DNA of 63,753 bases, counting the filler, from Stramenopiles sp. TOSAG23-6 (taxonomy: Eukaryota), in NCBI GenBank assembly GCA_900128565.1. It is 23 parts of 23 records of this genome, joined end to end, with 100 filler letters (N's around TTAATTAATTAA, not from the genome) between each part and the next. Parts side by side here need not be neighbours in the genome. Positions count along the whole stretch, not along the records: positions 8,396 to 11,087 come from LT637868.1; 22 more parts are not named here. One strand, given 5' to 3'. The stretch's first letter is position 1; the number at the start of each line of letters is the position of its first letter. Shown here one piece after another: positions 9,003 to 11,027 of this stretch. The translations under genes were made by a program, and so were the position numbers. Under the pieces are notes generated by a model. The model saw nothing but the letters and a program-made list of their open reading frames with translations. It made no database searches and was not told the origin of the DNA.

Positions 9003-11027
9003 TTTTTTTTTTTAAAAAAATTTTTTACCCTAAAAAAAAAAAAAAAAACAATTGAAGTTCCAAAATGTTTTTTTTTTTCCCTACATGATGATTTCAATTT
9101 TTTTTTTTTTTTTTTTTTTTTTTCGTACACAATTTCATACCTAACAAAACCAAATCAATGTTTGAAATATTCTCCTATACTATATGTAAACATAACGAAA
9201 GAGTTCTACAACATAAGTGTGTTAAATGTCCTATAGGCTCAACACGAAAAGCAGGTGATAATCCAACAGGTCAAAATACAAAATGTAAAAACGTTATATG
9301 TAAACAAAGAGAACATGTGATTAATCATGAATGTAAAAAGTGCAAAGAAGGATGTATGTTTTATTTATTTTTTTACAAAAAAATCGAATTTTTTTTTTTT
9401 ATAAAAATTTTGTACCTAACGAGTTTTTTCTTGAAATATTTTTCCAAAATACATGGGGTAGACCACTTGGTGATAAAGCGGTTGGTCCTGATACGTTTTG
9501 TTCCAAATTAAAATTTTGTAATTTAGATATGTATGCTATACAAAATTTTGAATTCGATGATAATGATTCTCAAAATAGTGAAATAATTGAGACTTCATTT
9601 ATTAAATATACACATTATGCTAAAGGTACAGAGGATGGTGGTTCAATTTGTGTAAAATGTCCAAGACCAGATAAATCAGCAAAAAATGCTATTGTTACAT
9701 GTACAACTGAATTTGATTCTAGAGTCTCTCAATGTCAACCTGGTCATTATATTGAAGGTGGTATTGAAGCTGATGCGTCGAATGATTCAAACAAGAATAA
9801 AAATGATTTGCATTTAGGTGCTCCAGATGTTTGTTGGCCTTGTACACCTCCATCTGTATCCTCTGATGTTTGTCAAGAAGATGAATATGTATGTTTTATT
9901 TTTTTTTTTTACAAAAAAATCGAGTTTTTTTTTATAGTAAATTTTGTACCTAACGTTTTTTTTTTCAATTTCGAATTTATTTTTCCAAAATACATTTACC
10001 TCACTGCTCTGGAAAGGAACGCATGGATGTTGGATGCTTACCATGTCCATCTATTTCACATGCGACACGTGTCAGTTGCTCAGGCAAACCTCCAAAACAT
10101 TTTAATCAAAGGAAATCAAATACTATGTCTACAATGAATGTAATCCTATCTTCATGGGTTATTACTTGTGCAAAAAACTATCATAAATCTCAAGATGTAT
10201 CAAAATGTATCAAAAATGAAACGATGAGTAGTGTAACTAATGATTCTATGGATGCAGCTATCATTGTAAATGACTCCAATACAAAAATATCAGACAAAAA
10301 TACAAAAATATCAGACAAAAATACTGGGCAGAATACTACACAGGGTATGGATACTGAAAATTCATTTGTTGATCTACAAAGTGAAGCATGTATATTTTAT
10401 TTTTTTTCAATTTCGAATTTATTTTTCGTACGAAATTTTGTACCTAACAAAAAACATTTTGAAATATTTTTCTAAAATACATTCACAAATGTTTTTGTTG
10501 AGCAACAAAGTGAAGCATTTGTAAATATTTCTAGACGTTGGGAAATTGGGTATGAAAATATTAAAAAGTTAAGTGGCGATGAAGAAAATATTGTACGTTT
10601 TCAAAATTGAATTTTTTTTTTGAAATTATTTTTTCATACGAAATTTTGTACCTAACAAAAAAACAAAAAAACAAAAAACAAATATTTTTTCACAAAACAT
10701 CTTAAACTTGATGATTCTTTTTTCAGCATGAAACAAACGATTGAAGAAGCTGCAGATTTACATAGAACATCAATGGAAAGAATTGTAGAATTAGAACAAA
10801 TAATATTGAAAAAACAAATACATGTAAATGAAGAGAATTCGTGTGATGCTATGCAAAAAGGACCGACATTGTTCCCACAATTCATAAATTCATTTTTGAA
10901 TAAAGAGACAAAAGATTTTATAAATGAAACTCCATTAAGTGTTTTAGCGGTTGCTATTGGAGTTGGTTTCAATGTAGCTTGGTCAATGACGAGTCTCTTA
11001 TCTCTTGTCATGAAATCTTTCTGGTGA
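8462..11027 (+). CDS. Cys-rich surface protein with fibronectin type II domain and C-terminal hydrophobic segment (5' truncated, 6 introns)
   Basis: PCVFPVVYEG|VRYESCIT...WC...WGYC; GT-AT introns 8618-8765, 9354-9454, 9889-9995, 10390-10482, 10593-10700, plus an ambiguous one ~8957-9185. Confidence 0.75.
8618..8765 (+). other. GT-AT intron in FN2 domain
   Basis: GGT|GTACGTTTT...CACAATACAT|GTACGT; keeps the conserved FN2 Gly (YEG-VRY). Confidence 0.85.
10390..10482 (+). other. GT-AT intron
   Basis: Splice gives QSEAF, identical to the next internal repeat QSEAF. Confidence 0.85.

Follow-up and report, generated by a model that had tools for sequence, protein, structure and literature searches.

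AT-ending introns in the Stramenopiles sp. TOSAG23-6 assembly are copies of one repeat family, and the AT in front of them is probably an insertion footprint

In a window of 63,753 nucleotides from the Stramenopiles sp. TOSAG23-6 assembly (GCA_900128565.1), by which we mean the whole stretch of DNA that was analyzed, we followed up a group of introns that begin with GT and end with AT instead of AG. Most of these introns are preceded by a second AT at the end of the upstream exon. The non-AG introns with exonic AT are real, and their flanks are highly non-random. The interpretation we favor, and consider probable, is that they belong to a single, very high-copy family resembling introners and miniature inverted-repeat transposable elements (MITEs), and that the exonic AT is the footprint of insertion. 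The repeat family, the statistics of its flanks, the removal of one copy from RNA with its retention in DNA, and the register of the AG-ending copies of the family were all observed directly.

Intron sites were chosen by the intron motif and by continuity of the reading frame, ignoring the exon flank, and the final curation was carried out by hand. Automatic pairing on open frames alone was too permissive, giving 2225 pairs, and a second pass gave the 112 rows from which the curated set was drawn. This set consists of 29 non-AG introns with donor and acceptor paired, a further 10 donors and 8 acceptors that contig ends cut off from their partners, and three AG-ending copies of the same family (Table 1). 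The exon ends in AT (positions -2 and -1) at 34 of the 39 donors, including 25 of the 29 paired introns, and position -1 is T in 38 of 39. As a background, GTs elsewhere in long open reading frames (ORFs) were scored, and AT stands before 172 of 1501 of them (11.5%), which gives a binomial P of 3e-27 for the enrichment before the donors. The donors without exonic AT are those at 8618 (GT), 10593 (TT), 48690 (GT), 38142 (AC), and 39030 (CT). Exon position -3 is C in 19 donors, T in 10, A in 6, and G in 4 (C, 19/39 versus 16% in the background, P 3e-6), so that a complete YAT precedes 29 of the 39, and the second exon begins with G in 21 of 37 cases versus 26% in the background (P 7e-5). On the intron side, all 37 acceptors end in AT, with A at -2 in 37/37, YAT in 36/37, and C at -3 in 33/37. 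The donor motif GTAYGT is held at its G in 39/39, its T in 37/39, its A in 36/39, its G+5 in 33/39, and its T+6 in 38/39.

A preliminary description of this DNA had counted AT before 27 and T before 31 of 32 non-AG introns, and the present tallies bear it out. The borders that it gave for four introns between 9354 and 10700 (9354-9454, 9889-9995, 10390-10482, and 10593-10700), all of which lie on the contig at 8396-11087, were recovered as well. For the introns at 7960 and 8961 the GT...AT ends were kept, but the reading frame needs 3' ends other than the family-aligned positions 8088 and 9185. Introns drawn over spacers (2623..2902, 11028..11246, and 27932..27712) were discarded as pairs; the contig joins are artificial.

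A listing of the cores and a MAFFT alignment of 25 copies reveal that the non-AG introns are copies of one repeat of ∼100 nt, in which three conserved blocks are separated by poly-T/A spacers of variable length. The 5' block reads GTAYGTTTT(C/A). In the middle block, TTTTTCGTACGAAATTTTGTACCTAAC, a small palindrome (GTACGAAA/TTTYGTAC) precedes CTAAC, which resembles a branch site, and this hairpin together with TACCTAAC forms the core of the repeat. The 3' block is TTGAAATATTTTTYMAMAATACAT, with the 3' end TTTYMAMAATACAT and a conserved A.AATACAT. When the exonic AT is counted, the 5' end of the consensus (ATGTA) is the inverse of its 3' end (TACAT), which amounts to an inverted repeat of 5 bp. 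About 50 TACCTAA cores are present on both strands, each in the sense orientation relative to the local ORFs, and contigs break within the element. Some copies carry long direct repeats at their borders (11+1 nt at 24073 and 6+1 nt at 23671).

Several copies depart from this plan. The core (hairpin and TACCTAAC) is tandemly doubled within single introns at 11541/11608, 5947/5901, 5678/5622, and 49169/49138, and in the 59-nt copy at 48830-48888 the 5' end is fused straight onto the core. Two copies begin with GA, not GT (36414 on the plus strand, GAACGT, and 24073 on the minus strand, GAATGT), and AT still stands in front of both. A family-like intron with canonical ends was found at 54969-55056 (minus strand); it reads AAAAAG^GTAGGA...AAAAAG^GT (^ marks a cut), with an 8-nt direct repeat, and its exon end and intron end are both AG.

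The family is not confined to the window. Summed contig depth on parts of the element reached 43,000-97,000 in the DNA run X3 and 11,800-21,500 in the RNA run X6, as compared to ∼5 on exons, and the family is thus extremely abundant in both samples. Contigs of X3 that match 5' ends of the element often begin 2-3 nt before the GT (9887/9886 and 10388/10387), which indicates that AT, and often YAT, flanks many further copies. A metagenome scan for the element core returned one locus on an unrelated contig, L001, with the same borders as the family.

Parts of the contig at 8396-11087 occur in DNA runs of an organism coded as A, in seawater metagenomes, and in polyA metatranscriptomes, and three RNA runs and one independent DNA run (X3) were aligned on this N-free contig. 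The alignment partly skips repeats, stretches lacking RNA coverage are uninformative, and the comparison covers the 15 best-supported of 251 joints. Two RNA records from two studies, X6 record 12 and X7 record 18, run from 10316 and 10201, respectively, to 10386 and resume at 10480, ending at 10576 and 10541, with 93 nt skipped. With CAT at the end of exon and intron alike, the 10386/10480 skip yields the same product as the removal of 10390-10482. The DNA contigs of X3 (records 1-4) extend 20-30 nt into introns, and no intron-less DNA form is present among the joints listed for X3. For introns other than 10390-10482, removal is read from the continuity of the reading frame. X6 records 9, 10, and 11 hint at the borders 8461, 8618, and 8961; record 9 begins at 8459 with 153 letters lying elsewhere, consistent with an acceptor at 8461/8462. 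X7 record 22 lies on 10700-10851 with seven unplaced letters in front, an overhang so short that it is weak evidence. A textbook 3' site, TTTTTTCAG, is located at 10727, 27 nt past the ACAT^ end of the intron at 10593-10700 and also in frame. Since record 22 covers 10700-10851 continuously, ACAT^ would be the site used and TTTTTTCAG at 10727 would be exonic, and the AT site at 10700 thus appears to be preferred over the TTTTTTCAG site.

The repeated AT complicates the placement of the cut. The exon end equals the intron end over at least 2 nt in 25 of the 29 paired introns and over at least 1 nt in 28, so the mRNA is the same if the cut is moved by 2 nt or by 1 nt, respectively. The register ambiguity raised in the preliminary description is genuine, and its preference for GT...AT is supported along several lines. 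The standard 5' splice-site consensus for U1 and U6 is GTRAGT-like. GTAYGT fits that consensus at five of six positions, and the ATGTAY of an AT...AC reading does not. The AG-ending copies at 4611-4472 and 3999-3843 align without a shift, TATAG over TACAT and G over the last T, just as had been argued earlier. X7 record 22 begins at 10700, not 10699, which fits an exon that ends in T and not in AT.

Protein homology adds to this picture for one junction. Homologs of the exon at 8462-8617 have 4-10 Pfam FN2 domains; Pfam searches of single exons gave no FN2 in 8766-8960 nor in three other exons of the gene. The FN2 repeats of the homologs read ...F.Y.G^V.Y..C; splicing at 8618 gives ...YEG^VRY..., and a 2-nt shift gives Asp in place of Gly. 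At the position of the codon at 8615-8617, the FN2 repeats of one homolog, P0270, have G, N, G, E, and G (Gly in 3/5). The Gly thus favors GT...AT, but the earlier statement that it excludes the 2-nt shift was too strong, as P0270 has Asn and Glu at this position too. A similar adjustment applies to 38142, whose preceding C had also been used to fix the register. The alternative readings there give His (CAC^AT) versus Tyr at an unconserved position of PIF1, and no transcript-derived PIF1 protein of this organism is present in the protein collection (best match, 76% identity). The C still counts against TG...CA, as an argument from regularity. Taken together, we consider the argument for the GT...AT register sound but not closed.

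It is very unlikely, in our view, that the true register of the AT-preceded majority is AT...AC or TG...CA. Such registers would leave the mRNA the same for 25 of 29 introns under AT...AC and for 28 of 29 under TG...CA, the first and last bases A and C of AT...AC are the classical replacement of the G-G pair (PMC13326754), and the GA-starting copies at 36414 and 24073 would be regular under either shift. On the other hand, the introns at 8618, 10593, and 48690 would turn into GT...AC or TT...AC, the branch site at 33-54 nt from the 3' end is too distant for U12-type splicing, and the misfit of ATGTAY, the start of X7 record 22, the Gly favored by the FN2 homologs, and the G aligned over the final T in the AG-ending copies all speak against a shift. 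These objections bear chiefly on AT...AC; TG...CA is opposed only by the C in front of 38142 and by the absence of precedent.

The internal signals of the family are those of U2-type introns. In such introns, a pyrimidine tract comes after a yUnAy branch site that is placed ∼18-50 nt before the 3' end. Of 25 aligned copies, 24 have CTAAC at a distance of 33-54 nt from the 3' end and then a T-rich tract. From the branch site to the 3' end AG is scarcer than expected, with 7 occurrences observed versus 17 expected in 972 nt. The U2-type features of the 5' site, the branch motif with its tract, and removal from RNA are thus present, and the 3' YAG is replaced by YAT (36/37). Judging from these motifs, the splicing would be done by a U2-type spliceosome with tolerance for a 3' YAT. 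The choice of this YAT appears selective, given that another YAT occurs 13-17 nt upstream of the chosen one in 22 of 26 introns and a YAG occurs within 60 nt downstream of the 3' end in 20 of 26. The bypassed YATs and the unused YAGs imply that the 3' end is found either by an extended signal (A.AATACAT) or by measuring a distance. An Rfam search of the window for small nuclear RNA (snRNA) genes gave 0 matches at gathering scores and only microRNA (miRNA)-like matches at E<=0.1.

Other classes of element were considered and rejected. U12-type introns combine the 5' box ATATCCTT with a TCCTTAAC branch site located 10-20 nt before the 3' end; AT-AC introns, which may be of U2 or U12 type, start with ATATCC or ATAAGT. 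The introns described here resemble the latter in that AT...AC can be read in 25 of 29, and differ in the 5' motif (ATGTAY in the shifted reading), in the branch distance (33-54 nt for TACCTAAC), and in that the AT-AC reading is broken by the introns without a preceding AT. A ciliate-type internally eliminated sequence was rejected on the grounds that the seawater DNA of X3 keeps the exon-element junctions, that no joined DNA form is listed, and that the code is standard. A reading as euglenid-type introns was likewise rejected.

How the exonic AT came to stand in front of these introns could be explained by insertion of the family as a DNA element. Each copy would bring a GTAYGT 5' site, a small hairpin, CTAAC, a T-rich tract, and the conserved 3' end (A.AATACAT). 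The element would enter a C-AT-G-like site at which the AT would be duplicated, one copy staying exonic and the other forming the last two bases of the intron, or it would simply prefer AT sites. A U2-type spliceosome would then remove everything from the G of GT through the T of the final AT, the original coding sequence would be restored, and the duplicated AT would make the cut movable by 1-3 nt on paper. Both insertion as the cause of the exonic AT and the exact phosphodiester bonds that are cut are what we infer. With the C at exon -3 and the G at the start of the second exon, the site reads as the palindrome C-AT-G, the pattern to be expected if DNA inserts strand-symmetrically. The AG-ending copies are preceded by GT, AT, and TG and not regularly by AT, and so the exonic AT is tied to the AT-ending element, not to the spliceosome overall. 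An AT direct repeat borders 25 of the 29 paired introns and is longer in some copies, a possible trace of target-site duplication (TSD). Among the three causes put forward in the preliminary description (a U1 variant, altered U5 contacts, or insertion preference for AT sites), the last fits best, given the repeat family and the palindromic context.

Several observations weigh against an insertion footprint. No covariation of the supposed duplicates was found; the introns whose donors lack AT still end in AT where the acceptor is known (4/5), and exon -3 varies among all four bases as intron -3 stays C. This would be expected if splicing holds the 3' AT while the exon copy drifts, and the duplication itself is thus a step that we infer. 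The 23 short contigs showed neither a transposase nor an empty site, and none of the full copies seen was in antisense or between genes. The C at -3 and the G at +1 are also similar to the usual MAG^G junction consensus and by themselves are no proof of a DNA-level target, and the conserved 3' block could be kept for splicing and not for transposition. The inverted repeat is 5 bp in most copies, reaching ∼10 bp with a bulge in the GTATGTTTT subfamily, and an RNA joint was directly observed for one intron only (10390-10482).

Three other explanations of the exonic AT were weighed against the insertion footprint. The AT could be a splicing signal, with CAU^GUAYGU read by a changed U1 (A facing exon -1) or U5 loop 1, or with one factor reading both AUs, so that the junction code has moved from AG^G to AT^G. 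The exonic AT is kept as well as the intronic GT (34/39 versus 37/39), the YAT^G consensus is shaped like MAG^G, and the choice of the final YAT over upstream YATs (22/26) and downstream YAGs (20/26) implies that some extended signal is read. We nonetheless regard this as quite unlikely. Five donors lack AT, among them 10593, which has an RNA-supported 3' end, and 8618, which has FN2 support; the flanks of the AG-ending copies (GT, AT, and TG) show no genome-wide exon-end rule; and for Fritillaria borealis, in which AT-ending introns are described, PMC13326754 reports no change to the U1 5' end, to U5 loop 1, or to the U6 ACAGAGA box. Spread at the RNA level, in which an excised intron reverse-splices at YAT^G-like mRNA sites and is copied back, is distinctly improbable as well. 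There, the AT would reflect a proto-splice-site preference and no duplication would take place, which would agree with the lack of covariation and with the sense orientation of every copy seen in coding regions, and the mobile unit would be exactly GT...AT. However, sense-only orientation can also come from selection, the mirrored flanks (C -3 and G +1) and the inverted ATGTA/TACAT ends are features of DNA transposons, tandemly doubled cores and a 5'-truncated copy are nothing unusual among DNA repeats, and the closest described systems are ascribed to MITEs (PMC11282704).

Least credible to us, and hardly to be expected, is that exonic AU and the following GUA pair with the terminal UACAU in a stem that joins the splice sites and sets where the non-AG 3' end falls, a role suggested for such stems in introns of euglenids and Amoebophrya. 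The AUGUA/UACAU complementarity is a property of the consensus, and a terminal stem, (C)AUGUA/UACAU(G), was present in the centroid fold of five of six introns tested, but the fold energies were no better than those of shuffled sequences (z +1.25 to -1.41), GA- and GTT-starting copies carry no compensating 3' change, and by a hand count exon -3 pairs with exon +1 in 16 of 29 introns versus ∼15 expected. In a further reading, AT^G would be more than a scar, with a 3' site lacking AG defined by the G-U pair of first and last bases, possibly together with a match between the exonic and intronic AU (through one component or through AUGUA/UACAU pairing), in a lineage outside the described Fritillaria. 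This we think unlikely; if true, it would provide a second and cleaner natural system, with a uniform GT...AT class on a single introner family, for asking why GT-AG is nearly universal.

An intron with a final AT violates one of the best-conserved rules in the expression of eukaryotic genes. Here the violation is uniform and comes from a single recognizable family, a system simpler than the mixed intron classes of Fritillaria borealis. Through this family, large-scale intron gain from a mobile element would be tied directly to a loosening of the 3' splice-site rule, and the duplicated target would create an apparent junction consensus. In practical terms, gene-prediction programs built on GT-AG will fail for this genome, and cDNA by itself does not give the exact borders.

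The closest known parallel is in larvacean tunicates. Henriet et al. reportedly described, in 2019, MITE-derived introns with AG/AC and AG/AT ends from F. borealis, in the Fritillariidae. According to PMC13326754, a YAY triplet precedes the 5' splice site and recurs as the final three bases of the intron, 3' AT accounts for 44% of F. pellucida and 34% of F. borealis introns, and ambiguous intron borders are settled by consensus rules. The same paper proposes duplicated U2AF subunits and snRNA m6A for the tolerance of such ends in F. borealis, and its draft genomes come from whole-genome-amplified single animals (PMC13326754). Introns of F. borealis also carry terminal inverted repeats (TIRs) and TSDs, and the exonic TAC in front of them formed the 3' splice site (PMC11282704). 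Fritillariids are marine plankton, and the introns of the window are like theirs in their AT or AC ends with a penultimate A, in the YAY triplet at both places, in their ambiguous borders, in a repeat origin (with possible TIRs and TSDs here), in a U-rich tract before the 3' AT, and in some starts of G followed by a base other than T. They are unlike them in their conserved GTAYGT start (mostly AG in F. borealis), in their repeated unit of AT (YAT) versus TAC, and in that one dominant family of hairpin plus TACCTAAC makes up nearly all non-AG introns of the window.

Introners described elsewhere also share features with the family. Those of Micromonas pusilla and Aureococcus anophagefferens are likewise short and high-copy, insert in genes, and are spliced out, have short TIRs, as the family may too, and carry one splice site in the element, the other being co-opted from or overlapping the TSD; unlike the AT-ending introns, they are GT/GC...AG, and their TSDs are at least 3 bp and demonstrable, whereas the 2-bp AT is only deducible here (PMC11282704, PMC9860276). 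Amoebophrya introners likewise have non-canonical and uncertain borders, direct repeats of 3-5 nt over the boundaries, and terminal inverted repeats; however, they have no conserved terminal dinucleotides and have inverted repeats of 8-20 nt (PMC7789003), in contrast to the uniform GT/AT ends, strong branch motif, and ∼5-bp inverted repeat described here. Our literature search, which did not extend to Henriet et al. 2019 or to the supplements of PMC13326754 (the latter may show a GT/AT class in F. pellucida), found no paper that pairs GT-AT introns with introners. This kind of intron, with 3' sites derived from TSDs, a YAY rule, and borders that are ambiguous, is already described for larvacean tunicates, and the introns would be already known if the organism is a fritillariid. 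Compatible with a fritillariid host are the animal-like CAP gene, the FN2 domains, the occurrence in seawater DNA and polyA RNA, the two GA donors, and a contig with an inverted duplication of the kind typical for amplified DNA.

Table 1. Introns of the family and partial copies in the window (^ marks a cut).
Position	Strand	Borders	Length	Remark
9354..9454	+	GGAT^GTATGT...ATACAT^G	101 nt	frame needs AT end; TAG 7 nt downstream breaks frame
9889..9995	+	ATAT^GTATGT...ATACAT^T	107 nt	
10390..10482	+	GCAT^GTATAT...ATACAT^T	93 nt	removal seen in RNA
10593..10700	+	TATT^GTACGT...AAACAT^C	108 nt	exon end not AT
8618..8765	+	AGGT^GTACGT...ATACAT^GTACGTT		within FN2 domain; exon end not AT
7960..8084	+	AACT^GTATTT...		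frame demands CTTAT^ (8084), not ACAT^ (8088)
8961..9178	+	GTAT^GTACGT...		in-frame ends 9133 (CACAAT^) or 9178 (CCTAT^); X6 record 11 begins 9133
2419..2534	+	TCAT^GTACGT...GTACAT^A		
11478..11658	+	TCAT^GTATGT...ATACAT^G		core tandemly doubled
12570..12678	+	ACAT^GTACGT...ATACAT^G		
17180..17492	+	ATAT^GTATGT...ATACAT^G		internal N gap
18515..18603	+	CAAT^GTATGT...ATACAT^G		
22338..22440	+	ATAT^GTACGT...ATACAT^GTAC		
22575..22743	+	CAAT^GTATGT...ATACAT^T		
22949..23049	+	AGAT^GTACGT...ATACAT^A		
36414..36509	+	AGAT^GAACGT...GAACAT^GAA		GA start
53133..53230	-	GTAT^GTACGT...ATACAT^A		
52975..53087	-	ACAT^GTATGT...ACACAT^G		
49624..49723	-	GAAT^GTTTGT...ATCCAT^G		inositol-5-phosphatase-like gene
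49390..49499	-	TCAT^GTACGC...ATATAT^T		
49089..49200	-	TCAT^GTACGT...ATACAT^G		
48830..48888	-	CCAT^GTATGTACGAAA...ATCCAT^G	59 nt	5'-truncated
48581..48690	-	AAGT^GTATGT...ATACAT^GTA		exon end not AT
48325..48421	-	ATAT^GTACGT...ATACAT^A		
47439..47565	-	ACAT^GTATGT...ATACAT^G		
38291..38394	-	ATAT^GTACGT...ATACAT^G		PIF1-like gene
38034..38142	-	GCAC^GTACAT...ATGTAT^A		28 N inside; only donor without preceding T
23965..24073	-	CAAAAGTCCAT^GAATGT...CAAAAGTCCAT^G		GA start; 11-nt direct repeat at exon end and intron end
23572..23671	-	ATACAT^GTATGT...ATACAT^G		6-nt repeat
6328..6432	-	GCAT^GTATGT...AAACAT^GT		
6080..6273	-	ATAT^GTTTGT...ATGAAT^A		
5860..6004	-	TCAT^GTACAT...CTTTAT^G		doubled core
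4472..4611	-	CAGT^GTAAGT...CTATAG^G		AG-ending family copy
4223..4404	-	AAAT^GTACGT...AACAG^C		AG-ending, family 5' end
3843..3999	-	AATG^GTACGA...ATATAG^GTAC		AG-ending family copy
2623..2707	+	GTAT^GTATGT		5' part, contig end
30502..30561	+	CTAT^GTACAT		5' part, contig end
44361..44414	+	TCAT^GTACAT		5' part, contig end
47101..47179	+	TCAT^GTTTGT		5' part, contig end
52807..52883	-	AAAT^GTAGGT		5' part, contig end
47280..47331	-	TCAT^GTATGT		5' part, contig end
27882..27932	-	ATAT^GTATGT		5' part, contig end
38978..39030	-	TCCT^GTATGT		5' part, contig end; exon end CT
6600..6684	-	TCAT^GTATTT		5' part of family intron
2808..2902	+	...CAATTTAT^C		3' part after contig start
8396..8461	+	...AAATACAT^G		3' part after contig start
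11188..11246	+	...AAATGCAT^G		3' part after contig start
13973..14025	+	...AAATACAT^T		3' part after contig start
25102..25154	+	...AAATACAT^C		3' part after contig start
50044..50108	+	...AAATACAT^T		3' part after contig start
27712..27781	-	...CAACACAT^A		3' part after contig start
49892..49943	-	...CAATACAT^G		3' part after contig start

The 63.7-kb window consists of 23 separate contigs with 22 spacers (44 N, TTAATTAATTAA, 44 N) between them, at 2708-2807, 5503-5602, and so on to 60993-61092. The pieces drop monotonically in size from 2707 to 2661 nt, as assembly fragments of unrelated loci chained by size, and because the order is strictly by descending size, adjoining pieces are not genomic neighbors. 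Cys-rich, FN2-like exons occur in both of the pieces at 5603-8295 and 8396-11087. The piece at 58332-60992 is identical to the one at 61093-63753, and the sequence of both lies within 30662-33335, where an SLD5-like ORF is found; this triplicate contig looks like assembly redundancy. On the contig at 19539-22220, motifs at 19576/19685/19910 are mirrored on the opposite strand at 22183/22074/21719, and a central hairpin at 20738-20837 draws miRNA-family matches on both strands of the palindrome (Rfam, E<=0.1). This contig looks like an inverted chimera from whole-genome amplification.

The DNA is AT-rich and eukaryotic, with a GC content of 24-40% per 2-kb window, and its ORFs are read in the standard code. 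They include a PX-domain protein, an FKBP, a CAP protein, and a CLYBL, and single exons gave Pfam matches below the cut-off to an inositol-phosphatase-type fold and to the C terminus of a PIF1-type helicase. The genes look animal-like, in that the named relatives of the CAP protein are all from Metazoa at 33-38% identity and the Atlas CAP clusters are most frequent in Chordata; the CLYBL matches are bacterial-like. The CLYBL-like gene at 34598-35546 (plus strand) is split over two overlapping ORFs in different frames, which may reflect a frameshift or an unrecognized short intron, and a public protein of 316 aa, P0030, is 99% identical to it. A long, Asn/Asp-rich, low-complexity coding run lies within an exon at 11800-12160 and 12400-12480 (plus strand). 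Short telomere-like runs of TTAGGG/CCCTAA occur in introns at 37730-37765 (minus), 34339-34360 (plus), and 5260-5289 (minus), and also at 60-160 of the metagenome contig L001, where they are paired in inverted orientation. These runs may point to a second family of repeats carried by introns.

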